Part shown: positions 11,408-49,940 of the stretch, piece by piece
How positions within the stretch are numbered: position 1 is the stretch's first letter
Layout: the number at the start of each line of letters is the position of its first letter
NCBI GenBank assembly: GCA_965247365.1
Contig: CBDFHB010000002.1
Span: forward strand, 2,002,567 to 2,066,566
Direction: 5' to 3'
DNA: 64,000 bases
From: Candidatus Marinacidobacterales bacterium
GTDB taxonomy: Bacteria; Acidobacteriota; Vicinamibacteria; Marinacidobacterales; SMYC01
Position numbers and translations under genes: made by a program
The notes under the pieces: generated by a model
What the model was told of the DNA's origin: nothing
Databases searched by the model: none
The model's input: the letters and a program-made list of their open reading frames with translations, nothing else

Positions 11408-11409
11408 AA

Positions 11410-22766: not shown

Positions 22767-22768
22767 TT

Positions 22769-25206: not shown

Positions 25207-25808
25207 ATGAAAAGGCTGGTACTGCTTTTGGCTCTCTTGATTTCCGCCTCTGCGTTTGGTCAGTCTCTCACCGAACTCGCGAAGAAGGAGAAGGAGCGGC
25301 GTAAGACCAACAACAAGGAAGCTGTCGTTGAGGTGAACCAGAGCGACGTCGCGGTAGATGAGACTCCGGTGTCGATCGCGGAAGGCGACGATGTAGAGAC
25401 GACAGGCGGAGAAACGACGACCACGAAAGACAAGCCGGAGGCAGAAGCAACATCGACCGGGGATGAGTGGTCCACAATCTTTAAAGGGTTCCAGGCACGA
25501 TACCGGGGGAAGCTAAGGCTGAGCACGACGAAGACGTCGCGACCGTCGAGCAGGTGAAAGCGCAGTGCTCTTACAACCACATCGGCGAGCCGACCGTCCG
25601 CGATAAGGAAAAAGGCGTCCGGCAAGAGGGGTTGCCCGTCGGCCTCATCATGGGCGGTACGATGCAATACGGCTCTTGTGACACCATAGATTACGACCTG
25701 AAAGCCGCAAAAGAGAAGCGTGCCGACAAGCTTCAAGCGATCCAGCAGGAGTGCTACAGCGAAGCGAAGGCCCGGGGCGTTTCGCTCCGTGAAGCGTATC
25801 TGCAATAA
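25207..25808 (+). CDS. Secreted acidic T/E-rich protein; two ORFs (25207..25557 and 25554..25808) that merge across a G5 tract
   Basis: Signal peptide MKRLVLLLALLISASAFG. Shifting the frame by one base at CCGGGGGA (25505..25509) gives a continuous ~200-aa protein (...FQARYRGEAKAEHDEDVATVEQVKAQCSYNHIG...). Confidence 0.45.
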
Positions 25809-25958
25809 ACTTCTGGCCTAGTCCCAAAGGGCAGCGCAACAGGTCGGGTAAGACCCGAGCCGGGCGGGGCTCCCTGCGGGTGGTCGCGCTTCCAACTGAA
25901 AGCGCCATCGCCGTTCACGTGGTGGCGGCACGAGCGCCACGGTCGTTCACCCAGACGC

Positions 25959-26702
25959 CTAGCCGGGAGCGGAACGTTTTTTCGCTTCGAGGAAGGCGTT
26001 CCTGTAGATGAACAACAACATCTTGCGGGATTCCGTGAATTCGGTCCGCTCCAAACGCTTGATAGCTTCTTGGGCTAGTGGGGTTGGCGAGTCGTTCTCG
26101 CGAAACACCTCTTCTGCCGTTTCCAGGATGTCTTTCAGCGATACTGTTTCAGCGAAGTTCCCAAACTCCGACTCCCGCCCGGCGATAGCGGCTTTGCGTG
26201 CCCGCCCGGCCTGGCGGGAATAGTGCATCACCATGGTCAATGGTTGTGCGAAGCCAAGCCGCTTAAGTTCCTTCCGCACGGCCTGGCCAACGGTGAAGAA
26301 CTTCGCTCCCGGTTTCGCTACCACCTCGATTTCTTGCTTGAGCAGTGTGTACCAGCGGGCATACCTTGCGGGTCGGTCGACGTTGGCGAGCTCGACGGTC
26401 ATGGCCCCTTTCGATACGTCCGTGAGGTGATAGGTCTGACCAGGACCACACGGATGGCGTCGGGCGGCGGCGTGCAAGATGAAGTCCTCCAGGGAGTAGC
26501 TGAAGTTCCGAAAACCCTCAGCGATACGTTTGCGGGCAGCTTCCGGTGTCTTGGCCCACTGACCCCGCGATGGTTCCATGCAGATGAGTACGTAATCAGC
26601 CGGTCCCTTGGGCCGGAAGTTGGGCAGGAACACGTCGCCGTCGCGGTCGGCAAGCTCCCGGGCTTGCTGTTCAAGGAGGCGCATGTAGGTGTCGACGTCC
26701 AT
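25959..26702 (-). CDS. Hypothetical protein (247 aa), no family recognised
   Basis: Complete ORF with good residue composition. Region is GC-typical. Confidence 0.45.
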   Translation of the reverse strand: MDVDTYMRLLEQQARELADRDGDVFLPNFRPKGPADYVLICMEPSRGQWAKTPEAARKRIAEGFRNFSYSLEDFILHAAARRHPCGPGQTYHLTDVSKGAMTVELANVDRPARYARWYTLLKQEIEVVAKPGAKFFTVGQAVRKELKRLGFAQPLTMVMHYSRQAGRARKAAIAGRESEFGNFAETVSLKDILETAEEVFRENDSPTPLAQEAIKRLERTEFTESRKMLLFIYRNAFLEAKKRSAPG

Positions 26703-26929
26703 TCTAGGTGCGTGGGGTCAGCGCTTCTGCCTAGTGCACGCTGACGATCGGGCCTTGTTGCGCAAGGTTCCCGCAGACTTGAACGGTTCGTGAAGGCCAC
26801 CGAAGGAGTCCCAATAGTCTCTCACCATGGGGATCTCGTGCTTGCTCATAATAGCCGTTCCCAGAGCTTGTTAGGTGTTGCGTGGAATCTACCACGGGCT
26901 ATTTGTAAGGAACACTTCTTTCTGGCCTA

Positions 26930-27490
26930 ATGGTCGCCGAGGCTCACGTGATCGCTAGGCTCGTTTTCTGCACAACGGCGGTCCTTACGGTTGCCACCTC
27001 GGTCCCCGCTCAGACCTTCCAGGCCAAGGTCGTCGGGATCTCCGATGGCGACACTATTAAGGTCTACGACATTAAGGTCTACGACGGCCAGACGCAGACC
27101 CGAATCCGCCTCGAAGGGATCGACTGCCCGGAGAGCGGGGCGGACTTCTCCAATCGAGCCAAGCAGCTCACATCCGATCTCGTCTTCGGCAAGCGGGTCC
27201 GCATCGAGGGCAAGGAGCGGGATCAGTACGGACGCCTAGTCGCTCGAGTCTTTGTTGGCGACATAGACCTCTCTCTCGCCCTGGTCGAAGCTGGACTTGC
27301 CTGGCACTACAAGCAGTATTCGGACGACGCGGTCCTCGCGGCTGCGGAGGTCGTCGCCAGGACAAAGAAACTCAGCATGTTCAGCGGGGCGAGACGCCCC
27401 TTCACGGGGCTGAATGCCGTGCTCCGGACCCCAACCGACGAGAGGCCGGTCACGCTCGACTCACGACGATCCAGCTCTACCTTTATATAG
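26930..27490 (+). CDS. Secreted thermonuclease (staphylococcal-nuclease-like, SNase fold)
   Basis: GISDGDTIKVYD...RIRLEGIDCPES...GKRVRIEGKERDQYGRLVARVFVGDIDLSLALVEAGLAWHYKQY matches SNase Ca-site and catalytic residues. Contains an in-frame 15-bp tandem duplication (27056..27085, IKVYD x2). Confidence 0.75.
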   Translation: MVAEAHVIARLVFCTTAVLTVATSVPAQTFQAKVVGISDGDTIKVYDIKVYDGQTQTRIRLEGIDCPESGADFSNRAKQLTSDLVFGKRVRIEGKERDQYGRLVARVFVGDIDLSLALVEAGLAWHYKQYSDDAVLAAAEVVARTKKLSMFSGARRPFTGLNAVLRTPTDERPVTLDSRRSSSTFI

Positions 27491-27752
27491 ACGAAAAAGC
27501 GGACAGTAGACCTCCCTCCAATGCGGCATTCAAAATGAAGATTGCCGATTTGACCGCCTGCCTGCAAAGGATATATACACCTGGGCATGTTTGCGGGAGG
27601 AATCTCGCGGCCAATCAATTTACCTGAAGACGTCGCGGATTCCGGGGGAAGGGAGTAGCTGGTCTGCGCCGAGTTGCTCTCGGTCTGCCCCTCGTTCACG
27701 AGGCGCTCCGACAAACGTGGCACACCCACCTGCCACCGGGAAGGAAAATCGC

Positions 27753-27871
27753 ATGCTGACTCAACATCTCATCAGGAATCTCGTCTCGGTCGGGCTAACT
27801 GTAGCCCTTTCCACTTTACTGGCTGCCCCAGCAAGTGCGGATACACCATGTCCAACGCTTCTATTCGATCT
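27753..27871 (+). pseudogene. 5' fragment of a secreted-protein gene truncated by the IS256-like element
   Basis: MLTQHLIRNLVSVGLTVALSTLLAAPASADTPCPTLLFDL, then the ORF reads into the IS256-like end (SRFPWK). Confidence 0.4.
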
Positions 27872-28167
27872 GTCCCGCTTCCCGTGGAAATAAGAATGGC
27901 GTAACCTCCGGTTAACCAAAACCAAACCGCGCCTGGAAAGGCGAGGAGGAGGATTACGCCATGAAGAAGCCTACCACCATATCGAACGAGTCAGTAAGCG
28001 AGTACCGGGAGTTCGTCCAGCTTCGGCTGCGCAAGCGGGTGCTGGAGGCGATCGAGGTCGTGCTCGAGGAGGAAGTGGAGCAAGCGCTGGGGTGTCGTAG
28101 CTACGAGCGTGCGGAAGGACGTCGTGGTTATCGCAACGGGGCCGAGACCCGTCGCGTGACGACGGCC
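27872..28167 (+). mobile_element. IS256-family element, 5' fragment (left IR plus first ~69 codons of the transposase), cut by IS3-like copy 3
   Basis: GTCCCGCTTCCCGTGGAAATAAGAATGGCG... and MKKPTTISNESVSEYREFVQLRLRKRVLEAIEVV...ETRRVTTA are co-linear with the intact copy at 32819..34174 (same left end, about 97% aa identity). Confidence 0.7.
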
Positions 28168-28237
28168 CCCTCTGTGCCAACATCCTTGAGACACTTCGCC
28201 CCTTGAAATTAGTGTGTAGGGCGGAGGAGGATCATCA

Positions 28238-28705
28238 ATGAGTTCATTGATTGAGAGAATGACCCCGGCGGGAACGGAAGGAGCCCGCAGGGCGACTGGA
28301 GATCCCGCCGGCCGCGATGCGGCGGGGGTCCCGGAAACGGAAGTGAGTGAGCAAGCGAAGCGTCGACGCTTTACCGCGGAGTACAAGCTGCGGCTAGTGC
28401 GCGAGGCCGACGCCTGCAAGGGTGTCGGGGATATTGCGGCACTTCTGCGTCGAGAGGGCCTGTACTCGTCGCAGCTATCGAGTTGGCGCCGCCAACGTGA
28501 CGAGATCGCGAAGGCGGGGTTGACGTCGAGAAAGCGAGGCCGGAAGGCGAAGGCAGAGGATCCACGGGTCAAGGAGCTCGAGCGCGAGAACGCCCGGCTC
28601 CAACGTCGCCTGGCTCGAGTGGAGACGATGTTGGAGATCCAAAAAAAAGCCTCCGAACTGCTGGGGATCCCCCTGAATCCGCTCGACAGCGACGAGAACG
28701 ACTGA
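28238..28705 (+). CDS. IS transposase OrfA (copy 3)
   Basis: Identical protein to the other copies. Confidence 0.75.
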   Translation: MSSLIERMTPAGTEGARRATGDPAGRDAAGVPETEVSEQAKRRRFTAEYKLRLVREADACKGVGDIAALLRREGLYSSQLSSWRRQRDEIAKAGLTSRKRGRKAKAEDPRVKELERENARLQRRLARVETMLEIQKKASELLGIPLNPLDSDEND

Positions 28706-28707
28706 TT

Positions 28708-29841
28708 GTGGCGGCCGAGGAGCTGGCGGGACAGATTGGGCAGACGGCGGAAGCCTGCGAGGCTCTGAGTGTGGCTCGTTCCACGTTGTATCGCAGGCGC
28801 CAGCTGGTGACGCCCAAACCGAAGCGTCGTCCTCGGCCGCACCGAGCCCTCGACGAGACCGAGTGCGAGAAGGTCCTCGGAGCCTTGCACTGTGAGCGTT
28901 TCGTCGACAAGGCGCCCGCGCAGGTGTGGGCCACGCTTCTGGACGAGGGAATCTACCTCTGCTCGATTCGCACGATGTATCGGATTTTGGAAAAGTACGG
29001 CGAGGTCCGAGAGCGCCGGAACCAACTGCGCCATCCGAATTACGCCAAGCCGGAGCTGTTGGCCGAGGCGCCCAACGAGGTTTGGTCGTGGGATATCACG
29101 AAGCTTCGTGGCCCCGTCAAGTGGACCTACTACTATCTCTACGTCATCCTCGACATCTTCTCCCGCTACGTGGTTGGCTGGATGCTGGCTCACCGAGAAA
29201 GCGCCGAGCTCGCGAAACGCCTCATCGCCGAGAGCTGTCGCAAGCAAAACATTGAACCAGACCAGCTCACCATGCACGCGGATCGTGGCAGCTCGATGCG
29301 AAGCAAGTCCGTGGCTTTGCTCTTGGCAGACCTCGGCGTGACCAAGACCCACTCCAGACCCTACGTCTCGAACGACAATCCCTACTCCGAGTCTCAGTTC
29401 AAAACGCTCAAGTATTGCCCTCAGTTCCCCAGCCGTTTTGGTTCCATCCAAGACAGCCGGCTGTTCTGCCGCGGTTTCTTCGACTACTACAACAATGACC
29501 ACCGGCACTCGGGGGTCGGCCTTATGACACCGGCCGACGTTCACTACGGTCGCGCCGAACAACTCACCACCGCTCGGCGCCAGATCCTTCTCGAGGCTCA
29601 GCGTGCTCATCCCGAGCGCTTCGTTCGCGGAACGCCACAACCTCCCGTTTTGCCTCCTCAGGCCTGGATCAACCCGCCGCCGCAGAAAACGACGCTCCAG
29701 GATGCCGCAGGAGCCATTCTCTCGGCGTCGTCCATACCTGGGGTACCCCCTTTTTCTGCTTCACCCAACGAGATCGCGAGCGAAGCAGACGTCGACCACG
29801 CGGACATCACCAGTCGCCGAAAGTTAATCGAGGCTCACTAA
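28708..29841 (+). CDS. IS transposase OrfB, DDE/rve (copy 3)
   Basis: Identical protein to the other copies. Confidence 0.8.
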   Translation: MAAEELAGQIGQTAEACEALSVARSTLYRRRQLVTPKPKRRPRPHRALDETECEKVLGALHCERFVDKAPAQVWATLLDEGIYLCSIRTMYRILEKYGEVRERRNQLRHPNYAKPELLAEAPNEVWSWDITKLRGPVKWTYYYLYVILDIFSRYVVGWMLAHRESAELAKRLIAESCRKQNIEPDQLTMHADRGSSMRSKSVALLLADLGVTKTHSRPYVSNDNPYSESQFKTLKYCPQFPSRFGSIQDSRLFCRGFFDYYNNDHRHSGVGLMTPADVHYGRAEQLTTARRQILLEAQRAHPERFVRGTPQPPVLPPQAWINPPPQKTTLQDAAGAILSASSIPGVPPFSASPNEIASEADVDHADITSRRKLIEAH

Positions 29842-29882
29842 ATGCAGCTCGCGAGTGTCTCAATGTTGTTGACATGTTCCGC

Positions 29883-30100
29883 AATCCGACGGTTTCCGCG
29901 CCGTCCCTCCAGTGGAGGAAGCGCTCTCCAATCCGTGGGGGCTTCCAGAGACGCTCTTCGAACTCGGGTTCGACGGTGGCAATGACTCCGCACCGCTTCG
30001 CCTCTACCGTTCTCCCTTCATCGTGAAGCGCGCAGAGCCACTTCAAGGTGGGCATCCGTAGCTCGCTGCGCTTCACCAAGAGCTTCGAGAAGTGTGTCAT
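29883..30100 (-). pseudogene. Hypothetical gene truncated at its 3' side by IS copy 3
   Basis: MTHFSKLLVKRSELRMPTLKWLCALHDEGRTVEAKRCGVIATVEPEFEERLWKPPRIGERFLHWRDGAETVG, then the reading frame runs into the IS end. Confidence 0.3.
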
Positions 30101-30503
30101 CAGGAAGACGCTTGGCGGTTCCACTTCGCCGTCAGAGGTAGATCGCCCCTCGAAGTTAGGAGGCGAACGTCCGCACTCGCACGTCCACCACAATGCGCAT
30201 TCGAGGAAGTTCCGAGACTTTCTTGACCAAGGTTGGCGCGGGGGGTCCTATGATCGCGAGCCAAAGGGGCTGGCTGCCGAGCTCGTTGGCAACGTAGGTG
30301 GCGACGACGACGCTGAAGGTTTCGAGGGCCGAGGAGAGAAGCACCGCCGGTTGCCTCAAGACTTGGGAAGAAGATTGGCTTCGCCACACCTCCCGATTTC
30401 TGCCGCGTGTTTCGACTGCGCGCTGGGAGATTCGGGACTGCCCCTGACACACCCCGCGAGGGCGTCGAATGTGTGTAAGTGATTAGAAGAGAGAGTATTA
30501 GAA

Positions 30504-30657
30504 GTTCCAAAGTAGTTGGAACTAGGTTGGAACTAAACGTCGACGCTGGCACTACTCGGCCGCAAGTTCCACGATGGTTCCAGCGTAGTTCCAAGCTGTT
30601 GGAACCGGGTAATGCGCTGAAAACAACGGCTCTAGCTCTCATTAGTTCCAAGTTCCC
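30504..30657. repeat. Iteron/operator-like cluster of about nine GTTCCAA / TTGGAAC heptamers, including two 4-nt-spaced palindromes
   Basis: AGTTCCAAagtaGTTGGAACT, taGGTTGGAAC, aaGTTCCAC, GGTTCCAG, GTTCCAAgctgTTGGAAC, GTTCCAAGTTCCC. Located just 3' of the RepA-like gene. Confidence 0.55.
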
Positions 30658-30664
30658 TCCCTTG

Positions 30665-31756
30665 CTATGGCCAGCGGAGGTACCTCCGCTTTCCTTTCTG
30701 ACCTTTCACCGTGATGACCCCGATCCGCTCAGCTTTTTCTAGGATTCGATGGAGAGAGGTTCTAGGGATGTCACGTTTCATTGCCTCCTCCCAAGTGAAG
30801 GGCTCGCCGAACGGCAGCTTGTCGAAATGCTTCTTCTCGGCAGGGGAAAAGGCTTTCGTGGCCAGGTCGGTGTTTGACGTGCGAACCCAGTGAGTTGGCG
30901 CGTGTTCGCCATCGATGGTGATGATGTTCTGGTCGAGGATGAGGGGTCCGAGTTCGGACTCGCCACGCCGAAAGCCCGCCAGAACGACGTACCCCTCCTC
31001 CTGCGACAAACCGAGTCGAACGTCAGTGTTGGAAATCCATGCGACTGAGCCCAGCACGTTGAAGAACCACGCCTTAGGATCCTTCAGAAGGCTGGGTCGT
31101 GGCTTCTTGCTGTCCGGCTTGCGGAGGTGGTGCGTGAACAAGATCGCCGGATACGGTTTCGTTCGGCGCAAGTGAGAAATGGTTTTGAGGAAGTCTCGCG
31201 TGCGCCACTCTTTCGCCGCTTCGAATGGTATTAGCTGAAGCGCCGTGTCGATTATGATCAGTCCGTAGTCACCTCCCGTGCTGAGGTTCGTCAACCATTT
31301 CAATCTTTCAGATTCACTCTCCGCGAGAACGCTTTCGAGCTCTTGGCTATTCCGATCCTTAGGATTCCCTCTAACGAACAAATCGATGTTGGGGCTCGCA
31401 TCGACTCCAAGGTGTTCAGATTGACGTCGAATCATCTTGTGACAGCGCTCTGCTCCAGACTCGAGGTCGATGATCAACACACGGGCCTCCTTGGTCTCGA
31501 ATCTCAAGAACTCCGTCCCCGAGGCGACCGAGAGCGCCGTTTGCGCGACCAAGGGTGTCTTCCCTACGTTCGGGTCGCTCGCCAAAATCGCAATTTCCCC
31601 TTTGTCCAAGATGTGGCATATCAGCGGAACTCTGGGCGGGGGACGGTTCTTGAGCGTTTCGCTGAGTGGGATTGGGCGGTTCTGCTTTCTCACTGGATCC
31701 TCCGCCACCCGCCTCGCCAGGACCCCCGGGGATTGGTCACGGTCCTCCAGACCCAC
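30665..31756 (-). CDS. RepA-like RecA-family AAA ATPase (AAA_25-like, mobile-element replication/primase-associated helicase type) with a C-terminal winged-helix
   Basis: Walker A ILASDPNVGKTPL, Walker B GLIIIDT. C-terminal SLHRILEKAERIGVITVKGQKGKRRY resembles a wHTH. Confidence 0.6.
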   Translation of the reverse strand: MGLEDRDQSPGVLARRVAEDPVRKQNRPIPLSETLKNRPPPRVPLICHILDKGEIAILASDPNVGKTPLVAQTALSVASGTEFLRFETKEARVLIIDLESGAERCHKMIRRQSEHLGVDASPNIDLFVRGNPKDRNSQELESVLAESESERLKWLTNLSTGGDYGLIIIDTALQLIPFEAAKEWRTRDFLKTISHLRRTKPYPAILFTHHLRKPDSKKPRPSLLKDPKAWFFNVLGSVAWISNTDVRLGLSQEEGYVVLAGFRRGESELGPLILDQNIITIDGEHAPTHWVRTSNTDLATKAFSPAEKKHFDKLPFGEPFTWEEAMKRDIPRTSLHRILEKAERIGVITVKGQKGKRRYLRWP

Positions 31757-31929
31757 TTCGCCTCTCCTTATTAATGGCCAGTCGGCCGGCGACCGCGGCT
31801 CTCGCGCACGGCACTATCCCGGGACGGATGTTCTTCTCTCGAACCCGAGAAACATCGAGGAAGAAGGAATCGTCCCAAGCAGGTTTGCCACATCGCCGCG
31901 GTTTGAAAGCTAGCGTTGTGCTCAAGCAA

Positions 31930-32130
31930 TTAGGCGTCCCGCGAGTTGTCGAGGAACGGCTTCGCCGATGAGCCAATTCCCGCGGCGCGCGAGCTCATCC
32001 ACTTCTCGACGTCGCTCTCAAGCCACGCTACCGCCGCGCGACCGATACGGCGTCGCTCAGGGAAGAGGCCGTCTCGCTCCAAACGCCAGGTCGTTACGCG
32101 CGAGAGACCTGTTTTTCTTATTACTTCGTT
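31930..32130 (-). CDS. AlpA-family HTH DNA-binding protein (phage/ICE regulator or excisionase-like), copy 2; start uncertain
   Basis: C-terminal ...EVIRKTGLSRVTTWRLERDGLFPERRRIGRAAVAWLESDVEKWM within ORF 31930..32301. No canonical ATG; a non-ATG start is likely. Confidence 0.4.
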   Translation of the reverse strand, partial: NEVIRKTGLSRVTTWRLERDGLFPERRRIGRAAVAWLESDVEKWMSSRAAGIGSSAKPFLDNSRDA

Positions 32131-32185
32131 AGATTTTGTTGCCTGCCCGGTCCTTCGCGCCGGAAGCGGGGCTTTTTTTACGAGT

Positions 32186-32401
32186 TCACACCTCCTCACG
32201 TGTGCTCCTCCTCCAGCCACCGTCGTGCGCCTTTCCGCCGCTTTTCGTCCACTCCTCCAGCTCTTCCTTCGAGAAGCGAATCCGACGTCCCAGGCGAACA
32301 CTCGGGATCAAGTTTTCCCGCGCCATTGCGTATATGTGCTGCTCAGTGGTCCTGAACAGCTGCGCGACTTCCTGAACCGTTAGGAACTCATTTTCGGACA
32401 T
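32186..32401 (-). CDS. AlpA/excisionase-family HTH DNA-binding protein, copy 1
   Basis: LTVQEVAQLFRTTEQHIYAMARENLIPSVRLGRRIRFSKEELEEW is an HTH_17/AlpA-type motif. Confidence 0.55.
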   Translation of the reverse strand: MSENEFLTVQEVAQLFRTTEQHIYAMARENLIPSVRLGRRIRFSKEELEEWTKSGGKAHDGGWRRSTREEV

Positions 32402-32485
32402 ACTGAGAGCTTCTCAACTCGCTGAGCTCAGAAAAAGGGCGGTTTCGCGACCCCTTGCGAAGTCGCCGTTTAGGAACGACGGGAA

Positions 32486-32752
32486 CTAGAGATTTGTCGG
32501 TCTCCGCCGTCGTCCCTTTTTTGACGGTGGGTCTGGGAGGTTCAAGAGTTCACGCGCGCTCTTCACCGCGTCTTCCACAGTTTTTCTCTTCGGGACTGAG
32601 TCAGGATATGCTGGACGAGTCCCTCCAAAGTACTGGAGTGCGATATCAGAAGTGCTAGTTCCGAGTTGGTGGAGTACCAACCACTCGAGGTCGCGAAATT
32701 TCATTCGAGTCGGAGCCTTCTTCCATCCCCGGCTCTGGGCCAGCTCGAGCAT
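32486..32752 (-). CDS. Small hypothetical protein, possible HTH regulator
   Basis: 88-aa ORF upstream of the AlpA genes on the same strand. Weak LuxR/sigma-region-4-like segment LEWLVLHQLGTSTSDIAL. Confidence 0.25.
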   Translation of the reverse strand: MLELAQSRGWKKAPTRMKFRDLEWLVLHQLGTSTSDIALQYFGGTRPAYPDSVPKRKTVEDAVKSARELLNLPDPPSKKGRRRRPTNL

Positions 32753-32818
32753 TTCCGAACGGTGACGTTTGAGGGCGCGTTGGAACCCGGACGTTATCCT
32801 GTCCTTCGCAGCGGATGT

Positions 32819-35020: not shown

Positions 35021-35121
35021 TTACCCGAACAAAAAATCACGCGTTGGAAAAGCTCCCTGACCGATCGCAACAAGCTTCCGTCACATAGGTCTAATGCGCC
35101 GGCCTCGGCGGTCGCCACGAT

Positions 35122-40320: not shown

Positions 40321-40730
40321 GGTGGTAGCTCCAACGGTTGCTTACATTCTAGACATTCGGAGCTGATCGAGCAAGACGTCGTGTCGTTAGCGAGAACTGC
40401 GAATTCAATCCAGCGATATCACCGGACGGATTTTTCGTGATGCCGACGCGCTGCAGTGCGGAGGACACGAACAGGCGAGCCTTGAGGCATGTCTTGAAAT
40501 TGACTAACTTTTCTCCTGGCAGTATTCTTGCCCGGTGAAGACGGGTTTCTGCACGATCTGTCGGTCTGCAAAATGACAGGACTCTACAGACAAGAATGAG
40601 AGAACCTAACGGAAATCTTGGTACGGTATTGGCTTCTGGGCCATTTCGCCGTGGCTTGGAGGTGCGCTTCCAGCGCGCTCATGCGGGCGCGCGGAATCTC
40701 CAGCGGGCGGAGCTGTGGCGTTCTGTGCGG

Positions 40731-41600
40731 ATGAAGGCGGTGGGCCTAGCCGTCGCGGGTCTTTCCCTCGTGCTTCTGCAGGGCTGTGGGGGGGGGACCA
40801 CTGCGCGCACCGGAGAGCCCGGCGAGACCACAACTTCGGCGAACGCCGCGTCGGGAACAACCGCCCCGACGACTCCGGCACCGGGTGCTGAGCTGACTAT
40901 CATCATCGATGCAAGCGCACCAGCAGCGTGGGTGGAGGAGTTCAACGGTGTGATGGAAAACTTGAAGCCCCTGCTAGCCCCAAGTCGTCCGAAGCCTCTG
41001 ACGATCCGAGCTTGGCTCGACACGGTTGCGCCTCCAGCAGGTTTCCAGAACGGGCAGTATCTAACAAGCAAAGATGGCGAGTTGGTTCTCGCACTAGAGA
41101 TCAGTTCGTTTGAAATTGAGCATCAGCATGATCACCGCCTGTCAGTTATAGCCCACGAATATTTCCACTGGTATCAGCACTCGCTTCACTCAGGGGATGG
41201 GTTTAGCTTCGAGTGTAAATGGATGATCGAAGGAGCGGCCGCGGCATTTGAATCGATGTACCTTGCTCAATATAACGATATCAATACTTACTTTGAGGAT
41301 GCTCAGCTGCAACATATTCCGTCTGGAGATCCCAACCCTGCTGAGTATGAACTTTACAGCACCTCGGAGACGAATTACGGATATTCGGTATACATGATGC
41401 TCATTCTTGCCCAACACACCTCATTTCAGAAAATCTTTGTAGATTTCTGGGAACAGACGCCTCAAAGTGCGAATTGGAAGAATATATTCTCGGACACCTT
41501 CGGCATGTCTGTCGATGCCTTTTACGACATTGTGAGAACAAAGCCAGACAAGAGTAGTCTTATTCCCTCTCAAGGCACACTGCTCACCGTTCAGTTCTGA
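40731..41600 (+). CDS. Lipoprotein with an HExxH zinc-metallopeptidase motif
   Basis: Lipobox LVLLQGC. T/A/P-rich linker. VIAHEYFHWYQH (HExxH) plus a downstream Glu. Confidence 0.5.
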   Translation: MKAVGLAVAGLSLVLLQGCGGGTTARTGEPGETTTSANAASGTTAPTTPAPGAELTIIIDASAPAAWVEEFNGVMENLKPLLAPSRPKPLTIRAWLDTVAPPAGFQNGQYLTSKDGELVLALEISSFEIEHQHDHRLSVIAHEYFHWYQHSLHSGDGFSFECKWMIEGAAAAFESMYLAQYNDINTYFEDAQLQHIPSGDPNPAEYELYSTSETNYGYSVYMMLILAQHTSFQKIFVDFWEQTPQSANWKNIFSDTFGMSVDAFYDIVRTKPDKSSLIPSQGTLLTVQF

Positions 41601-41685
41601 CCGACCAAAATCGACCAGCAGCGACCACATGCGCGAGCCCTGAAAATCCTTGCGTCGCCAGTTCAATTCTGGCCTCTGGCACCAC
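41601..41685 (+). repeat. Interspersed repeat family copy B (perfect T-arm GCCAG-TTCAATT-CTGGC, then CTCTGGC-A-CCA)
   Basis: Shares ...CCGACCA..CGACCAGCAGCGACCAC.TGCGCGAGCCCTGAAAATCCTTGCGTCGCCAGTTCAATTCTGGCC with copy A. Confidence 0.5.
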
Positions 41686-41801
41686 ATTAGATGCGGCGAC
41701 TGCATGGCCGACTGTTTTCTGCGCTGTTTTACCTGCGTGCGATCATCGGGCGGCGCTGGACCACCATCGACAATTCGTCCTGCGGGCTTTACGATGGTTT
41801 T

Positions 41802-42362
41802 ATGGTTCAACGAGGTACATGGCTCGGGTTGACCGTCTTGCTGGCGATCGCTCTGTGCGATGACGCGCCGGGCTACGCGAAAGCAGCGCAGGAACCGGAG
41901 TCCGAAGCCGCCATGTCCGAAGACGTGCGACGAATGCACGAACGTTTGATTGCCTTGAGCAAGGGCGAGGGCTCAACGTCGGGTCTCCGCATCGAGTTCA
42001 TGGATGGGAGCGGGATGTCTTCGCACCGCAGTTTCAATCTCGAGGCGGGTAGGCTCGTCAGCAAAGAGTGGAAATCTCCCGGCTCCCCGATGATTCACCG
42101 TGAAGGGAATGTGACGGACTCGAGAGTTTCCGAGCTGCTCCAACAGCTGATTGCAAAGCAATACTGGACCTTTCAGGGCACCCGATTCATCCCGGACGCC
42201 CCGATGTTCCTGTTCCGTTTCTACTACGGGGACTTGAAGCATGTAGACTTTCGGTGTGGCGCTGAGGAGGTTCGAGAATCTGAGGCGCGTAGCGCGATCC
42301 GCAGCCTGTTCCTGAAATTTGTTTCCGAAACCAAGATGAAGACCGTTCCGGCTAAGTCGTAG
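41802..42362 (+). CDS. Hypothetical secreted protein
   Basis: Internal Met MVQRGTWLGLTVLLAIALC (signal peptide) of ORF 41691..42362. Confidence 0.4.
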   Translation: MVQRGTWLGLTVLLAIALCDDAPGYAKAAQEPESEAAMSEDVRRMHERLIALSKGEGSTSGLRIEFMDGSGMSSHRSFNLEAGRLVSKEWKSPGSPMIHREGNVTDSRVSELLQQLIAKQYWTFQGTRFIPDAPMFLFRFYYGDLKHVDFRCGAEEVRESEARSAIRSLFLKFVSETKMKTVPAKS

Positions 42363-42379
42363 TCTGGATACCTTGCCCG

Positions 42380-42420
42380 TCCGCGAGCCCTGAAAATCCT
42401 CAGTCCGCGATTCGCCCTGC
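42380..42420 (+). repeat. Interspersed repeat family, degenerate partial copy C
   Basis: GCGAGCCCTGAAAATCCT is shared with copies A and B, then diverges. Confidence 0.35.
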
Positions 42421-42464
42421 CCACGATCGACAAGATACAGTGCGTTCAAGCAAGGGGGACGGTC

Positions 42465-42833
42465 ATGCAACTTGGCGCATTTTCGATCAGCTTGGCGGTC
42501 AAGGACCTCCAGACTTCGCAGGCCTTTTACGAGAAGCTTGGTTTCGAAGTCTTCAGCGGTGATGCCTCGACGAACTACCTCATCTTGGAGAACGGCGAGA
42601 CAACAGTCGGACTCTTCCAAGGGATGTTCGACAAGAACATCCTGACCTTCAATCCGGGCTGGGATCAGCATGCCCGGAAGCTCGACAGTTTCACGGATGT
42701 GCGTGAGCTTCAACGCCAACTCCAGGAGCAAGGCGTGGATCAAAGGTAGATGCTGACGAGAGCACTGAGGGCCCGGCGAGCTTCATCGTCGAAGACCCGG
42801 ACGGAAATCCCATCCTCGTCGATCAGCACGTCT
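42465..42833 (+). CDS. VOC/glyoxalase-family protein with an apparent 1-nt frameshift at an A3 run (42742..42744)
   Basis: ORF 42465..42749 ([24 protein letters not shown]...). The next frame continues ...[29 protein letters not shown], the usual VOC C-terminus. Confidence 0.5.
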
Positions 42834-43044
42834 GACTGGACACAGGTCGAGCGTCTTGGTCCATCTCAGCTGAAAACACTGCTCTAGGGCTGCATCTCGG
42901 ACTTGCGACAGTGCGAGCTTGCAACTTGCGGCTCCAGCAGGCATCCTATTTCCTAATCGGTTAACAACAGATCGTTCGTCTTGGCCCTTGACGCCAGTGC
43001 AAGGGTCTTCACCTTTTTTGTGGAGCGTGGAGCACGATTCCCGA

Positions 43045-43512
43045 ATGGACTCCCCTTATCGCATTCCGACGCGCCCGGTGAGCGCGAAGCTCGTCGTGGA
43101 GGGTGGACGCCACGAGTCGGTATTTTTCTATCTGTCGACGGTGTCCGAGACCCACGCGGGCGCCGAAACGGTAGAAGAAGCGTTGAACCGCCGGCGAGAG
43201 TTCGTTCCTGTCGGCCTGGCCGAAGGTGGAAAGAATCTGTTGATACGCCGACGCGCCATCGAGAGGGTGACGGTGGCGAGCAGCGAGCCGGACCTGTTCG
43301 AGCTCTCTGAGCTCGCCCCTTGCGTCGATCTCGTTCACCTGGAGCTCAGAGGCGGCGAGATCATCGAAGGTACCCTCGCGACTATCCTGCCTGCGGAGCA
43401 CCCGAGGCTGTCCGACTACTTCAACCTGGAACACGCCCTGTTTGTTCCCATCGCCGTCGACGATGCCGTCACCTTTGTGAACCGTGACTTCATCTCGATC
43501 GTACGGCTGTAG
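43045..43512 (+). CDS. Hypothetical protein immediately upstream of the PilT-like gene
   Basis: Internal Met MDSPYRIPTRPV... of ORF 42919..43512. No family recognised. Confidence 0.35.
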   Translation: MDSPYRIPTRPVSAKLVVEGGRHESVFFYLSTVSETHAGAETVEEALNRRREFVPVGLAEGGKNLLIRRRAIERVTVASSEPDLFELSELAPCVDLVHLELRGGEIIEGTLATILPAEHPRLSDYFNLEHALFVPIAVDDAVTFVNRDFISIVRL

Positions 43513-43529
43513 ATTCTGGAGGATTCGAC

Positions 43530-45088
43530 GTGATGCGAATGGAGCCTCTTCTGGACGCGCTCCGACAATCGGGTGGGGAGGTAATGAAGCTCGAGCCGGG
43601 CGAGAAGATCTACGTGCTCAAGTCTGGAAGCCGCCTCGACGTGGGGCGCGAGCCTCTCTCCCATGCGACGTTACTCCAGATAGTGACCGAGACCCTGAAT
43701 CCGCTCGGGCTCTCCGGCCTCGGCGAGCAGTCGCGCACCATCGCGCGCCGTCACCACGAGGACGACTTCGAGCTCGAGTTCGGAAAGACGAACGGATCCA
43801 TCAGCATCTCGATTCGTCGAAAGAATCCGTCGCTGGGCGAGCCCGTCGCCGCCGCATCTTTCTCCAGCGCACCGACGCCCACCGAACCCACGCCGCCATC
43901 GCCCACGCCGCCATCGCCCATGCCGCCATCGCCCATGCCGCCCAGCGCCGCTCTTCGACCGAGCGTTAGCCTTGCTTCGGCGGCCGGCAGCGCCGAGATG
44001 GACGAGCTGCTGCGGTTGATGGTGTCGGAGGAGGCCTCGGACCTGCATTTGAGCGCCGACGCCTATCCGGTGTTGAGGGTCCACGGAGAGATCCGATTCC
44101 TCGAGGAGCGCGGCGCGATGGCGTCGGAGGATATTCGACGACTGGTCTACGGGATCCTTGAAGAGGACGTGCGTCAGGCGTTCGAAGCGAAGCGGGACGC
44201 GGACTGTGCCTACGAGATTCCAGGCCTGTCCCGATTTCGCGTAAACGTGTTCGAAGACCGCAAAGGAGTCGGAGCCGTCATCCGCCAGATCCCAGTAGAA
44301 ATCCTCAGCGCGGAGCAGCTCGGGCTACCCCCTTCCGTGCTCGACTCTGTTTTCTTACGAAGGGGCTGGTCCTCGTTACCGGTCCGACGGGCTCGGGCAA
44401 ATCGACGACCCTGGCCGCGATGGTCGACCACATCAACAAGAATCGCAGTGACCACATGATCACCATCGAGGATCCGATTGAGTTCGTTCACGAGAACCAG
44501 CAATGTCTCATCAACCAGAGGCAGGTCGGCGATCATACCGAGAGCTTCAAGGCGGCCCTTCGCGCCGCGCTTGGTGAAGACCCCGATGTGGTCTTGGTTG
44601 GTGAAATGCGCGATCTGGAGACGATTGCCATCGCGATCGAGACGGCGGAGACGGGTCACCTCGTTTTCGGAACGCTGCACACGACCACGGCGATGGCCAC
44701 CATCGACCGCATCATCGATCAGTTTCCGCCGGACCAGCAGGCGCAGATTCGGGTCATGCTCTCCGACTCACTCAAAGGGGTGGTCGCGCAGGTTCTCTGC
44801 AAGAAGAAAGGCGGCGGGCGCGTGGCGGCGCTCGAGGTTCTTCTGGGAAACTCGGCTTTGGCGAGCCTGATCCGCGAAGGCAAGACCTTTCAGATCCCGT
44901 CGGTGATGCAAACGTCCAAACGGCAGGGCATGTTTACCATGAACGACAGTCTCCTGAGACTCGTGAAAGAAAACCTCGTCGAGCCGAAGGAGGCGTGGAT
45001 GAAGGCGGTGGACAAGAGCGGGCTTTTGGGCCTGTACCGAAGTGGCGGGATCCCCGTGGACTTCACTGGGGGAGACGGCGGGAAGTGA
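43530..45088 (+). CDS. pilT: PilT/PilU-like type IV pilus retraction ATPase with a ~140-aa N-terminal extension and Pro-rich linker; frameshifted near 44354-44360
   Basis: ASDLHLSADAYPVLRVHGEI...FRVNVFEDRKGVGAVIRQIP matches the PilT N-domain. After a 1-nt shift: KGLVLVTGPTGSGKSTTLAAM (Walker A), ...DPDVVLVGEMRDLETI (Walker B), ...GHLVFGTLHT (His box). ORFs 43530..44459 and 44420..45088. Confidence 0.7.
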
Positions 45089-45432
45089 GTTGATTCGCTG
45101 ATGAGGTCGCCAATCTAGGATTGGCATTCGGGAGGTTGCGACTTCCAGAATCTCCGCGCTTTACGAAGGGCTGCCAGGGTCCTTGCAGGGCCCACTTCTT
45201 TTGCACCGTGCCGACCGTCACCGTCGAGAGAAGCCGCCAGGCACACTCCGAGCTTTCTACGATGGGCCGGGAGGTGGCGGCGAAGCCCGCGCGGCGAGTG
45301 ATCCTCGGGGCTGGAACGACTTGGACATTGAATATCGGAGACCTCCACAACACGCTACTTGACCCATTTTCAGCCCATGAGGAGACAGGCCGATTCTTCG
45401 TGACTCAGAAAAGCCTTACTAAGAGGTGTTAG

Positions 45433-45473
45433 TGGTGCCGGGGGCCAGAATTGAACTCGCAACGCAAGGATTT
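45433..45473 (-). repeat. Interspersed repeat family copy D (inverted orientation, 3' T-arm/ACCA part)
   Basis: The reverse complement reads AAATCCTTGCGTTGCGAGTTCAATTCTGGCCCCCGGCACCA. Confidence 0.45.
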
Positions 45474-45539
45474 GCTGCTCTGTCCCAGCCGGGGACGTGC
45501 TCCGAGGACGAAGGCAAGCCTTTGCTTCTCACGTGCCGA

Positions 45540-45797
45540 GATTCAGTGTCGATTAGATGCTCTCGAGAACGTCGGGAAACTTCACCGTTTGGCAGTTCTA
45601 GCTAAACTATTGATAAGAAAAGATTAACGCACTATCAGGCGAGCTCGGCGTAAGGTTATCCGACAGTTTCCGCTCGGTCACATTCGTCAGGAACCGAGTA
45701 ACTCATTGACATAAAAGGTTTAACGTCTCTTGGCACCTCTCTTGCTTGACTGCATCGTGGTATCAAACGTGAACGACATTACCTCGGGAGAACAACG
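45540..45797 (+). promoter_or_regulatory. AT-rich intergenic region upstream of the PEP-CTERM gene (probable promoter/regulatory region)
   Basis: GC drops sharply. Contains TTGACA-like (cattgacataaaag) and TATCAAAC-like elements. RBS GGGAGAACAACGATG. Confidence 0.3.
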
Positions 45798-46409
45798 ATG
45801 AAACTCATCCGGCTACTTGCAGTTGTCGTGTTTGCGACGATGGTTGCTGGGACGGGAAGCGCCGCGTTCATTGACCTGACCGCACTCGATGTCGCGTGCT
45901 CGGACGGGCAAGCCAACATAATCGTGGTCGAAGACGTCACAGGAAACAACGGGGGCGCGACGGATTGCTGGGGTGCGTTCGACGGAAACGACCCTGGCCC
46001 AAACGGTGGATTCAATATCACCATGAACAATGAGGAAATGACGTTCAACTACCTGGCGAAAAAGGACATTGACAACGGGATGCTCGACGATCCGGAGGGG
46101 ATCAATCTCGTCGTCGGCGGCACCCCTGGCATAGCGGGAACGTGGGAGTTCACTGAGGGTGCCTTGAGCACCGATTTCTTGATCGTCCTGAAAGCGGCCA
46201 ACTCGCCGGGATATGGCGTCTGGCTTTTCTCCGGCCCTGACAATGCCTCCTACAACGGTAGGTGGTCTGCGGCGTGGGAGCAAGACCTTTCCCACCTTGC
46301 GATCTACGACAAGGAGTCCAACGGCAACGGCAACGGCCTGCCGGAGCCGAGCTCCATTGCCCTCATTGGCCTTGGGTTGCTCGCGCTTGCTAGACTCCGC
46401 CGCCGCTAA
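45798..46409 (+). CDS. PEP-CTERM sorting-domain protein (exosortase substrate)
   Basis: Signal peptide. C-terminus ends LPEPSSIALIGLGLLALARLRRR, which is PEP, then a TM helix, then an Arg cluster. Confidence 0.75.
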   Translation: MKLIRLLAVVVFATMVAGTGSAAFIDLTALDVACSDGQANIIVVEDVTGNNGGATDCWGAFDGNDPGPNGGFNITMNNEEMTFNYLAKKDIDNGMLDDPEGINLVVGGTPGIAGTWEFTEGALSTDFLIVLKAANSPGYGVWLFSGPDNASYNGRWSAAWEQDLSHLAIYDKESNGNGNGLPEPSSIALIGLGLLALARLRRR

Positions 46410-46866
46410 ATCGAGTCGACGGCACACGAACTACGACGCGCTAGGCAGGCGCAAAGCTCACGCGATCTGACCCACATCGCCCCTTCCATCTCAGCTGAAA
46501 ACACTGCTCTACGGCTGCATCTCCGGCTATCGCCAATCTAGGGTCCACATTCGGGAGGTTGCGACTTCGACCCGAGCTCGCTGAGAGCAGCTGTTTCAAA
46601 TCGAACCAACTGTTCCGAAAGTGAACTGAGTTGGTGGGCGACCTGCGAACGAAAAAAAAGAAGCGAGACTGGATTCACCCAACCAATGGAACAGGATGTT
46701 CCAGAATCCAGCCTCGCCACTTTACCGGAGACCGATCTGATACGGGCTCCCCCTCGGACTGTCCCGTATCGGAACGATTGCGACCCCAAATGGAGTCTAA
46801 TCGAGTAACCTTGCAAACGGAGTGCCAACGCCGGGTCGGCAAGACTCGTATAATGGGGACTGAATC

Positions 46867-47433
46867 ATGGATCACCTCTTGAGCGTCGGGCTTGGGCTGG
46901 GGCTCGCGGCAGCTTGCGGCTTCCGCGTCTTCGTGCCTCTGCTGGTTATGAGCGCCGCCTCTTACTCCGGACACCTCGAGCTCGGCACGAGCTTCGAATG
47001 GGTCGGTTCGTTCCCGGCTCTCATCGCCTTCGCTTCCGCGACCGCGGTAGAGATCGCGGCCTACTACATTCCGTGGGTGGACAACCTATTGGACTCGGTG
47101 TCTGGGCCCCTCGCGATCGTGGCCGGTACAATTGTGACCGCGTCATCTCTCGTCGACGTGGACCCCTTTCTGAAATGGAGCCTCGCGATCATCGGCGGGG
47201 GTGGGCTTGCGGGCCTCGTGAAAGGCTCGACGACGCTCGCGCGCGGCGCTTCGACGCTTGCAACGGGTGGCCTGGCGAATCCGCTGGTCTCCACGGTGGA
47301 AGTGGGAACTTCGATCGTCCTGTCGGTCCTCGCGGTGCTCCTACCGCTTGTCGCGCTCGTCGCAGTCGTGATCCTCAGCTTCTTTGCCTGGCGAATGGTT
47401 TTGCGCTGGAGGAATCGTCGTACACAACCCTAG
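46867..47433 (+). CDS. DUF4126-family integral membrane protein
   Basis: MDHLLSVGLGLGLAAACGFRVFVPLLV... is the characteristic DUF4126 N-terminus. Four to five TM helices. Confidence 0.6.
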   Translation: MDHLLSVGLGLGLAAACGFRVFVPLLVMSAASYSGHLELGTSFEWVGSFPALIAFASATAVEIAAYYIPWVDNLLDSVSGPLAIVAGTIVTASSLVDVDPFLKWSLAIIGGGGLAGLVKGSTTLARGASTLATGGLANPLVSTVEVGTSIVLSVLAVLLPLVALVAVVILSFFAWRMVLRWRNRRTQP

Positions 47434-47702
47434 GGGCGCTTCACGTAGTCGTGAAGCTTGGCCTCGATCGCGCTGCACGGCACGAAGAACGGCTTGTCGG
47501 TGACTTCGAGCAGGATGGCGCTTCCCGAGATCTGATAGTACCCCTTGAAGTCTCCCACCGGAGTCGGGAGGTGAAAGGTCCCGTCCGATGCCGAGCCGAC
47601 GAACGAGCCTCCCGCTCCGTCAACGCGCGCACGAATCCGCGAAACGAGCGTCTCACTCGAGACGTTGAAGTCGAACTCGAAGCGGCAAATCGACAAAATC
47701 AA
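47430..47702 (-). CDS. Small hypothetical protein
   Basis: 90-aa ORF convergent with DUF4126 (4-nt overlap). Confidence 0.3.
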   Translation of the reverse strand: MILSICRFEFDFNVSSETLVSRIRARVDGAGGSFVGSASDGTFHLPTPVGDFKGYYQISGSAILLEVTDKPFFVPCSAIEAKLHDYVKRP

Positions 47703-47741
47703 TAGAGGCTTCGCCCGGAAAGGCGATCGCTCATCGGGACT

Positions 47742-47957
47742 TCAGCTCTTCCGTCCCTTCTTGGGTTTCTCCGCTTCCGCGAGAAGCTTGGCGATGTCCG
47801 CGGCTGGCATCGTTCGAGAACCGACTTCGCTGATCAGCTCCTCGTCCGAGAGCGTCGACAGGCGAAGCTGGCGTTTCTCCAGGAGCTGGATCATGCGGCG
47901 TAGGCGGCGCTTGATTCGATCCAGCTCGCGCTCGATGTCTTTGAGCTCATCCAGCAT
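47742..47957 (-). CDS. Small coiled-coil hypothetical protein
   Basis: 71 aa with a charged heptad pattern (LDELKDIERELDRIKRRLRRMIQLLEKRQ). Confidence 0.3.
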   Translation of the reverse strand: MLDELKDIERELDRIKRRLRRMIQLLEKRQLRLSTLSDEELISEVGSRTMPAADIAKLLAEAEKPKKGRKS

Positions 47958-48059
47958 TGCAGTTTGATCCCAGCCTCAAGATGCAAGAGAAAACGACCGC
48001 GTCATTCTACCGTCATACTTCCTTCGAGACCACATCGTATTGAACTCGATGGCGCGGGC

Positions 48060-49912
48060 GTGCAGAATCAGTCGGTGCAGAGTGGGGGACCCGAAACCGT
48101 TCGAACTCCAGAGGACGTCCTCCGGGCGGTGTTCGGCTATCGGTCGTTTCGCGGCCAGCAAGCGAGCGTCATCGAGCACGTGCTGCGCGGCGCGGACGCT
48201 CTCGTGCTGATGCCAACGGGCGGCGGCAAGAGCCTCTGTTATCAGATCCCGGCCATCCTACGAGACGGAGTAGGTATCGTCGTCTCGCCCCTCATCTCTC
48301 TGATGCAGGACCAGACCAATGCGCTTCGGGAAGCAGGAGTAGAGGTTGCCTTCGTGAACTCTACGCTCTCCCCGCGGGACGCCTTCCGCATCGAAGACGA
48401 GATGGTCGCGGGTCACTACGACGTCGTCTACGTGGCTCCCGAGCGGCTCACGACCGAGCGATTTCTGGAGCGGCTCGACGGGACGAAGTTGGCACTCTTC
48501 GCCATCGACGAGGCGCACTGCGTCAGTCAGTGGGGACACGACTTCCGTCCCGAGTATCGAAAGCTCGACGTGCTCTACGAGCGTTTCAAAGGGGTGCCGC
48601 GAATCGCCCTTACCGCGACCGCGGACGAACCGACTCGGAGGGAGATTCTCGAGCACCTCCACCTAGCCGCATCGGGCATGTTCGTGTCCGGCTTCGACCG
48701 CCCGAACATCCGCTACGAGGTCGTCCCGAAGGCGAGTGCCCGGCAACAGCTCTTTCGCTTCCTGCAGTCTCGACACGTCGGCGAGAGCGGCATCGTCTAT
48801 TGCATGAGCCGCAAGAAAGTCGAACAGACCGCGGCCTGGCTCGAGGGGCAGGGGATTCGGGCGCTCGCCTACCACGCAGGTCTCGACAAATCCGTCCGTC
48901 GAGAACGCCAGGAGCGATTCGCCAAGGAAGAGGCCGTCGTGATCGTCGCGACCATCGCTTTCGGGATGGGCATCGACAAGCCGGATGTACGCTTCGTCGC
49001 TCACCTGGATCTCCCGAAGAGTCTCGAGGCTTACTACCAGGAGACGGGCCGTGCGGGCCGGGACGGCCTGCCCGCGGACGCATGGATGTGCTACGGGTTC
49101 GGCGATGTCGTTTTGATCCGACAGTTGATGGAGCGCTCTGAGGCTTCCCTGGAGCGAAAGCGCGTCGAGCAACTCAAGCTAAACACGCTTCTCGGTTATT
49201 GCGAGAGTGCCTCGTGTCGGCGGGCCGTCCTCCTGAGGCACTTCGGAGAGGCCCATGGGGGAGACTGCCGCAATTGCGACAATTGCCTGAATCCGGTCGA
49301 AACCTACGATGGGACGACCGAAGCGCAGAAGGCGCTCTCGAATGTGTACCGCACTGGTCAGCGCTTCGGTGCGGCCTATCTGACGGCCGTGCTGCTCGGA
49401 GAGGATGACGCGCGCATTCGTCGAAGCGGCCACGACAATTTATCGACTTACGGCATCGGCTCAGAGCTCGACAAAAGTGGCTGGATGAGCGTTTATCGGC
49501 AGCTCATCGCGGCGGGGATGCTGAGCGTCGAGCCTCAGCATGGAGGACTCAGTCTATCGGAAACCGCCTGGCCGGTCATGAAGGGCAAGGCCCCGGTCAC
49601 CTTGCGACAGGATTCTCGGGTCCGAAGAGTCAAGGGACCAAAGCCAAGGCCGGACCGCGGGACCGCGCTCGCGGAAACGTTGAGCTCGTCCATCGAACGC
49701 GAGACCTTCGAAGCGCTACGCAACAAGCGGCTCGAGCTCGCTCGCGCGAAAACCTCCCCCCTTACGTCATCTTCCATGACAAAACGCTCATGGAGATGGC
49801 TAGAGAGAGGCCGGAATCCCTGGAGGCGATGTCGGCGATTTCCGGGGTGGGGCAAGCGAAGCTCGAGGCTTATGGCGAGCTGTTTCTGGCCGTGCTGCGC
49901 GGAGAGGCTTGA
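48060..49912 (+). CDS. recQ: ATP-dependent DNA helicase RecQ; C-terminal HRDC region is read through a frameshift at a C6 tract (49756..49761)
   Basis: LVLMPTGGGKSLCYQ (motif I), DEAHCVSQWGHDFR (II), TATA (III), zinc-binding CxxC..CDNC, RQC. After the frame change: ...ENLPPYVIFHDKTLMEMARERPESLEAMSAISGVGQAKLEAYGELFLAVLRGEA*, an HRDC domain. Probable GTG start at 48060. Confidence 0.8.
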
Positions 49913-49940
49913 GACCTGTTGCCCCGAGAAACCCTCCCGA

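Follow-up and report, generated by a model that had tools for sequence, protein, structure and literature searches.

The 64,000-nucleotide (nt) window analysed here, a stretch of contig CBDFHB010000002.1 from the assembly of a Candidatus Marinacidobacterales bacterium with a GC content of ~60%, carries four genes whose reading frames are broken in the deposited sequence: those of a RecQ helicase, a PilT/PilU-family ATPase, a Glyoxalase/VOC-family protein, and a secreted protein (Table 1). Each is present as a pair of open reading frames (ORFs) on the same strand, with the downstream frame offset by minus one from the upstream frame, as would result from one lost base. At all four sites the insertion of one base at the junction has alone undone the break and yielded a single full-length protein, as the first-pass annotation of this DNA had stated, and all four frameshifts that it had listed have been confirmed as features of the deposited sequence. 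The restored RecQ, PilT/PilU, and VOC proteins match their family profiles continuously over the junctions, and the three genes have been found disrupted relative to intact orthologues.

A genome scan has identified a ~95% identical relative (L001), a metagenome-assembled genome (MAG) labelled Candidatus Marinacidobacterales (class Vicinamibacteria), in which gene order is conserved over 41.7-57.8 kb of the window, and protein look-ups have added more assemblies of the sister species to which L001 belongs (L021/L027, L022, L025, L026, and L028), together with three of another, third lineage (L024, L030, and L031). Intact orthologues at ~95% identity thus exist, and alignment to them has moved three of the four breaks away from the positions first given. 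In the RecQ gene, where the shift had been ascribed to the C6 run at 49756..49761, the lost base is an A in the run 4-7 nt upstream of C6; the window reads GCGCGAAAACCTCCCCCC, the relatives GCACTAAAAACCTTCCCCC (or ...ACTAAAAACCTTCCCCC...), and the JGI homologue P0169 has ARAKNLPPYVIF. The deposited frame runs on incorrectly to position 50006 and gives a product of 648 amino acids (aa; P0168), and the repaired protein scores 799.6 bits against the RecQ equivalog TIGR01389 (cutoff 640) and covers profile positions 3-589 of 591. The shift had been described as splitting off the HRDC domain. HRDC is indeed the domain that is hit, but the junction does not precede the HRDC model (residues 580-645) and falls ~19 residues into it. 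The accompanying remark that RecQ function is lost has turned out to be overstated, because the catalytic core is untouched (helicase, zinc-binding, and RQC domains) and only HRDC is disrupted. In Escherichia coli the HRDC domain tunes translocation and unwinding rates, and motor activity does not need it (PMC4464074); the domain also mediates structure-specific functions tied to the suppression of illegitimate recombination (PMC6773442).

The base missing from the PilT/PilU-family gene, whose shift had been placed near the T4 run at 44350..44353, lies 6-10 nt upstream of T4 and in no run of ≥3 nt. The window has CTCGACTC at this site and all relatives have CTCGAACTC, so that CTCGAC stands against CTCGAAC in four of four aligned relatives (GAAC to GAC). 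The repaired protein reaches 453 bits against TIGR01420 (cutoff 319) over profile positions 2-341 of 343, spanning the junction. The VOC lesion adjoins the A3 run at 42742..42744, as had been proposed, but is a deletion plus a substitution and not a simple change of run length: the relatives read GATCTGAAGG and the window GATCAAAGG (CTGAAG to C-AAAG), which generates a TAG stop at 42747-42749. The general claim that the frameshifts are homopolymer-associated is retained in part: it stands as given for the secreted-protein site, applies to RecQ at another run than the one named, and fails for PilT and VOC, whose lesions are outside runs of ≥3 nt. Runs of ≥3 nt number 2,772 in the 64 kb, about one per 23 nt, so that the proximity of a junction to A3 or T4 is of no evidential value. 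Runs with an intact length ≥5 (A5, G6) hold two of the four lesions and the other two lie elsewhere (AA, CTGAAG), while runs of that length cover, as a rough estimate, ~1% of coding positions. The enrichment of lesions in runs ≥5 is real, yet it is expected from both sequencing error and true slippage.

In the secreted-protein gene the shift is confined to CGGGGGAA, in agreement with the G5 run at 25505..25509 to which it had been assigned, and a change of either -1 or +2 would be compatible with it. The restored protein has no Pfam match, and a word-index search has given no homologue except its own fragment; an HMMER scan has nevertheless found homologues of 212-280 aa that align to both halves, with EWSTIFKGFQARY before the junction and KAEHD... 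after it. A Tyr (Y99) forms the invariant column ahead of the junction. Both halves of every broken protein had been called well conserved, which is the case for RecQ, PilT, and VOC; in the secreted protein conservation of the N-terminal half extends over its last ~15 residues only. In addition to these four genes, an FHA-DUF4388 gene is interrupted by a tandem duplication; once one copy is taken out, the gene has a 341-aa product, which spans 98-100% of homologues 334-349 aa long.

Table 1. Disrupted genes, their lesions, and mobile or degraded elements in the window
Feature	Coordinates	Strand	Basis
RecQ helicase gene, restored	48060..49913	+	DEAD, Helicase_C, RecQ_Zn_bind, RQC, HRDC
RecQ lesion, A4 run (intact, A5)	49749..49752	+	alignment to L001/L021/L022 plus JGI homologue P0169
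PilT/PilU-family ATPase gene, restored, with ~156-aa N-terminal extension	43533..45088	+	T2SSE residues 164-426; TIGR01420
PilT lesion, AA to A, just upstream of Walker A	44343..44344	+	1-nt gap, window only
Glyoxalase/VOC-family gene, restored	42465..42836	+	PF00903 residues 8-117 over the junction
VOC lesion, one base lost and one substitution	42741..42744	+	alignment to relatives
Secreted-protein gene, restored: signal peptide, variable linker, conserved Cys-containing C-terminal domain	25207..25808	+	homologues on both sides
Secreted-protein lesion, within CGGGGGAA; G5 run 25505-25509	25502..25510	+	Y99 / KAEHD columns
FHA-DUF4388 gene, restored; fifth disrupted gene, absent from the first-pass annotation	18697..19747	+	repaired protein against homologues
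Perfect 25-nt tandem duplication (GCCGCTGGATGCGTCATTGCAGTTG twice), +1 frameshift in FHA-DUF4388	19467..19516	+	
lon remnant	14726..16330	+	endopeptidase La profile 434-794 of 795 only; score under family cutoff
Ser/Thr protein kinase fragment	6026..6550	-	Pkinase profile 77-151 of 263 only
IS3-family copy 1, orfA/orfB with A8/T8 slippery run	10233..11947	-	
IS3-family copy 2, 100% identical to copy 1	22229..23943	+	
IS3-family copy 3, 1 SNP and 0 indels against the other copies	28168..29882	+	

Support for real decay comes from the lesions of the same window that do not involve homopolymers, namely the 25-nt duplication, the lon remnant, the kinase fragment, a fragment of an IS66 element, and an IS256-family transposase gene (fragment 27916-28206) that is interrupted by the third copy of an IS3-family insertion sequence (IS). 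The three 1,715-bp copies of this IS3-family element differ by 0-1 single-nucleotide polymorphism (SNP) and 0 indels, and the IS expansion is recent. Next to copy 1, a 194-bp IS3-family end is present twice in tandem with 100% identity (11754-12141; repeat 11948-12141). The ORF of the lon remnant, which keeps the C-terminal 45% behind an unrelated N-terminal part of ~160 aa, is a rearrangement product or a pseudogene. The kinase fragment adjoins a low-GC segment, and a transposase-like remnant is visible there in another frame. Neither of these two remnants had been named in the first-pass annotation.

Several genes of the same neighbourhood have also been found inactivated in the sister assemblies. 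A CGA to TGA change in the hypothetical gene hyp186 is common to L025 and L026, a +1 shift in a patatin gene to L001, L025, L026, and L028, and a +1 shift in the 155-aa gene hyp155 to L001 and L028. The RecQ gene is split by an IS3-family insertion in L021 (11548-12805) and L022, and this junction is reproduced at 100% by the Logan contig L023, which has been assembled from raw reads. In L029, a match to the window at 98% identity along 950 bp, an IS3 element sits in the FHA-DUF4388 gene, ~30 nt from the equivalent of the window's 25-nt duplication. The PilT-like gene carries a TAG nonsense codon at position 181 in L025, L026, and L028 and another at codon 393 in L021 and L022; it is broken in L030 as well, and intact in L001 and L024/L031. 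With a 2-nt insertion, the 1-nt deletion of the window, and a 58-aa fragment of the protein that is present on 13 contigs, its lesions in the clade amount to at least 4-5 independent inactivations, and both nonsense codons are TAG. No cross-validated inactivation of the VOC gene has been found among the sister assemblies aligned there. Altogether, ~three cross-validated small lesions per sister strain fall in a 16-kb block in which the window has three. Since sister assemblies from different samples share lesions, genuine decay is evidently frequent in the clade. The overlap between genes hit in the window and genes hit in the sister strains has been discarded as evidence, as it is not significant (chance ~0.3, estimated by hand).

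The differences that have accumulated downstream of the shifts bear on the age of the lesions. Counted at the first, second, and third codon positions of the restored frame, the differences from the sister species are 0/0/11 in RecQ, 3/5/14 in PilT, and 2/1/8 in VOC. With the third lineage as outgroup, the changes on the window's own branch are 10 synonymous and 4 nonsynonymous (6 and 4 in PilT, 4 and 0 in RecQ), a ratio that is the same as on branches with intact genes. As the downstream substitutions still follow the restored frame, the lesions are located at the very tip of the branch or are artefactual. The timing fits a recent burst of decay, with IS copies still identical, and consensus error equally well.

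The broken frames and the intact orthologues have been shown directly; that the organism itself carries the four deletions, and that they are not confined to the consensus, is an inference. The reading put forward here, to which we give a probability of roughly 0.5, is that most of the lesions are genuine and very recent inactivations in a marine Vicinamibacteria genome in early decay and overrun by ISs. Replication slippage or small deletions would have removed one base each from the RecQ (A5 to A4), PilT-like (AA to A), and VOC genes, while slippage or a small indel in the G run (-1 or +2) may have shifted the secreted-protein gene and the 25-nt tandem duplication would inactivate the FHA-DUF4388 gene; selection would no longer purge such lesions in dispensable genes. 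Taken singly, the PilT lesion is somewhat more probably real than not, the chances are even for RecQ, the secreted-protein lesion falls just short of even, and the VOC lesion is the most doubtful of the four. The reading is supported by the occurrence of cross-validated inactivations of PilT, RecQ, and FHA-DUF4388 in sister lineages. Real pseudogenes beside an IS expansion, which had been named in the first-pass annotation as the alternative to assembly indels, are at least as well supported as assembly error, and the assembly indels that it had preferred are neither shown nor excluded.

Several observations weigh against this reading. All four lesions are single-base deletions, with no nonsense change among them, and the validated small lesions of the sister strains comprise three nonsense changes and two one-base insertions. 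Each gene has exactly one lesion and no secondary one, and relaxed constraint past the lesions is not seen; the genes have thus spent no time as pseudogenes, just as would be expected of an artefact. Pairwise counts between near-identical sister assemblies give an estimated ~3-10 discordant one-base indels per 100 kb for each assembly, a rate at which error would produce about the four frameshifts found in 64 kb. Exact-protein look-ups, cluster listings, and scans of JGI metagenomes with site-specific patterns have retrieved nothing more than 95% identical to the window except the 950-bp match of L029, and neither a second assembly of the lineage nor independent reads from it have come up in those look-ups and scans. 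Each truncated product that has been looked up (the N-terminal fragments of VOC and the secreted protein and the C-terminal fragment of PilT) occurs on one contig only, and literature searches by taxon name and accession have found no publication.

Foremost among the other explanations are consensus indel errors of a long-read metagenome assembly, by which the genes of the organism would be intact and the contig would have dropped one base per site; we regard this as a serious possibility that remains somewhat below an even chance. The source is a single 5.87-Mb contig and therefore a long-read assembly, the sequencing platform being guessed only from contig names and from agreement with Logan contigs. 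Besides the uniform deletions, the single lesion per gene, and the substitutions that obey the restored frame, error would account for the two lesions in runs with an intact length ≥5, and between sister assemblies of 99.9-99.99% identity indels are more numerous than would be expected from the SNPs. L021 and L022 are separated by 2 SNPs and 3 one-base indels in 14.5 kb (C4/C5, T8/T7, and G1/G2), L028 has singleton indels (a G insertion and A8 to A7), and L001 alone has G8 for G7 in a Tad gene, which is frameshifted there. Relative to the 99.75% identical L031, L030 has three one-base deletions, all in GGCCCG/CGGGCC (L031 positions 20366, 20448, and 21686); these GGCCCG to GGCCG deletions look like a systematic basecalling error of that 7.3-Mb assembly, perhaps linked to methylation. 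In contrast, and in favour of accuracy, L031, with 8x in its contig name, is identical to the Logan contig L024 at 100.000% over 7,109 nt.

Other observations speak against consensus errors. The PilT (AA to A) and VOC (deletion plus substitution) lesions are not homopolymer contractions, and the most error-prone contexts are correct, a sign of an accurate consensus: G9 at 40788, the longest coding homopolymer, is in frame between a lipobox and an HExxH body, the three IS copies agree in A8, and inside open ORFs more than a dozen runs ≥6 are intact, eight of them in Pfam-supported ORFs. The zero indels among the three IS copies point in the same direction, with low power, as ~0.3 errors would be expected, so that this count is uninformative alone. 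About half of the candidate errors in the sister assemblies are insertions, against four deletions of four here; the window is without a shared error motif such as that of L030; a contig of Mb scale implies good coverage; and the 25-nt duplication and the structural remnants show real decay here in any case. The arguments from deletion bias and from lesion spectrum point in opposite ways and roughly cancel. It is quite likely that at least one of the four single-base lesions is an assembly error, and a mixture of real lesions and errors is quite plausible.

The reading of genuine lesions can be extended to the whole clade: the lesions would be both real and clade-wide, reflecting early IS-driven decay in which one set of dispensable genes is inactivated repeatedly and in parallel through differing lesions. 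The hits counted for it are at least 4-5 in the PilT-like ATPase, two in RecQ, and two in FHA-DUF4388, and we regard this extension as tentative, at somewhat less than even odds. For the secreted-protein site, two translationally coupled small genes, with a GTG at 25554 overlapping the TGA at 25555-25557, would also give two ORFs. The GTGA start/stop overlap, the 84-aa product that the gene caller has made from this GTG (P0031), and the word search without a homologue would fit such a pair. The downstream homology begins, however, at residue 9 of the stop-to-stop ORF (nt ~25509), 45 nt before the GTG, and the only match of 108 aa (P0034) begins with L and looks truncated. Because the 212-280 aa homologues align to both ORFs, including the last ~15 residues of the upstream one, the site is a frameshift and two coupled genes are very improbable. 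Programmed recoding, in which -1 ribosomal frameshifting or transcriptional slippage restores the full-length proteins, would share its -1 geometry at all four sites with the true programmed frameshift of the IS3 elements here (orfA/orfB, A8), but is extremely improbable and in effect refuted, as all close relatives compared for RecQ, PilT, and VOC and distant full-length homologues of the secreted protein are in one frame at the sites, no X XXY YYZ heptamer stands in the zero frame of aacctCCCCCCttacg, ctctgTTTTcttac, ggatcAAAggtag, or ataccGGGGGaagct, and no A/T run ≥8 is present, the runs being A4, A1, A3, and G5.

Length-ratio tests of the IDEEL type are used for indel errors in long-read assemblies, and the window resembles such errors in the one-base length change, the single restorable lesion per gene, the lack of relaxed selection, and a density of ~6 per 100 kb that is similar to the discordance of the sister assemblies. 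It departs from them in that half of its sites lie outside runs ≥3, G9, A8, and many G6 runs are correct, the repeat copies are free of indels, and all changes are deletions where the sister assemblies show both directions. Early-stage genome decay with IS expansion is known from Shigella, Yersinia pestis, Burkholderia mallei, and Sodalis, with which the window has in common many near-identical IS copies and IS-cut genes, dispensable genes with one inactivating lesion each (for a pilus ATPase, accessory enzymes, and signalling proteins), and parallel inactivation of one gene in sister lineages; it differs by the lack of nonsense changes among its lesions and by being one window known from the deposited sequence alone. 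Slippage at poly-A tracts has been described in Buchnera. Such endosymbionts also have frameshifts at mononucleotide runs in otherwise functional-looking genes, but slippage rescue needs A/T tracts of ~9 or more, whereas the runs here are 1-5 nt in a ~60% GC genome. The programmed -1 frameshift of the IS3 family, of which the three A8-containing copies are genuine cases in the window, has the same geometry as the four host genes, but in these no slippery heptamer is present and the orthologues keep a single frame. Gene-fragmenting errors in long-read assemblies (Oxford Nanopore Technologies, ONT, and PacBio) are a recognised problem (Kastor, PMC12007338), and in the Blochmannia endosymbiont indels at homopolymers are rescued by transcriptional slippage (PMC3622351).

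A Pfam pass over the other large ORFs of the window has revealed no further frameshift, and several candidates have been rejected. The amidohydrolase pair at 3160-5816 is two genes, RcpC and the secretin at 54911-57051 are adjacent genes, and the PilZ region at 20405-21155 contains a separate small gene. Two indels at 42912 and 43012 lie upstream of the hyp155 start as inferred from the length of the sister gene and have been treated as intergenic, the hyp155 indel at 43232 is a polymorphism within the sister species with the intact state in the window, and at position 54400 the window is intact and L001 has the G7 to G8 shift. The G9 run at 40788-40796 encodes Gly-Gly-Gly, which directly follows the lipobox Cys in a lipoprotein that is a putative HExxH metalloprotease, and could be a slippage-prone site. 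An island of low GC content (0.47-0.50) at 6689-9916, which holds one intact gene for a Sortilin/VPS10-BNR repeat protein of 1,075 aa, has probably been acquired horizontally. At 52463-63051 a complete Tad/Flp pilus operon is intact in the window, with genes for a Flp pilin, TadE/G-like proteins, RcpC, a secretin, a fused ParA-like/TadA ATPase, TadB, TadC, and FHA proteins; sister strains have an IS insertion at the equivalent of 54834 in this operon. All relatives have a patatin gene of ~2.1 kb that the window lacks; at 45175-46580 a gene for a 203-aa PEP-CTERM protein is found in its place. The 3' end of an M50 peptidase gene differs in length between L028 (1475), L025, and L026 (CCTCGTCGTCG, CCTTCGTCG, and CCTTGTCG, respectively), although these assemblies are near-identical.

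Under either reading the phenomenon is ordinary and well known, and its value is that of an annotation and quality flag: five genes of the window call for a frameshift flag in annotation, in place of a division into fragment "proteins", and frameshifts near short runs are not assignable to assembly error from the sequence alone. Were the lesions artefacts, the 5.87-Mb MAG would have to be polished, and neither its completeness nor its pseudogene counts could be relied on. Real lesions would add to the clear evidence from sister strains of a clade that is shedding the PilT-like ATPase, RecQ, and signalling genes amid IS proliferation. The parallel inactivation of the PilT-like ATPase, RecQ, and FHA-DUF4388 in this IS-rich clade is the sole thread of modest interest. 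Should decay be clade-wide, a transition from a free-living to a restricted state would have been caught in progress, and the repeated loss of RecQ or its HRDC domain might feed IS-mediated rearrangement.

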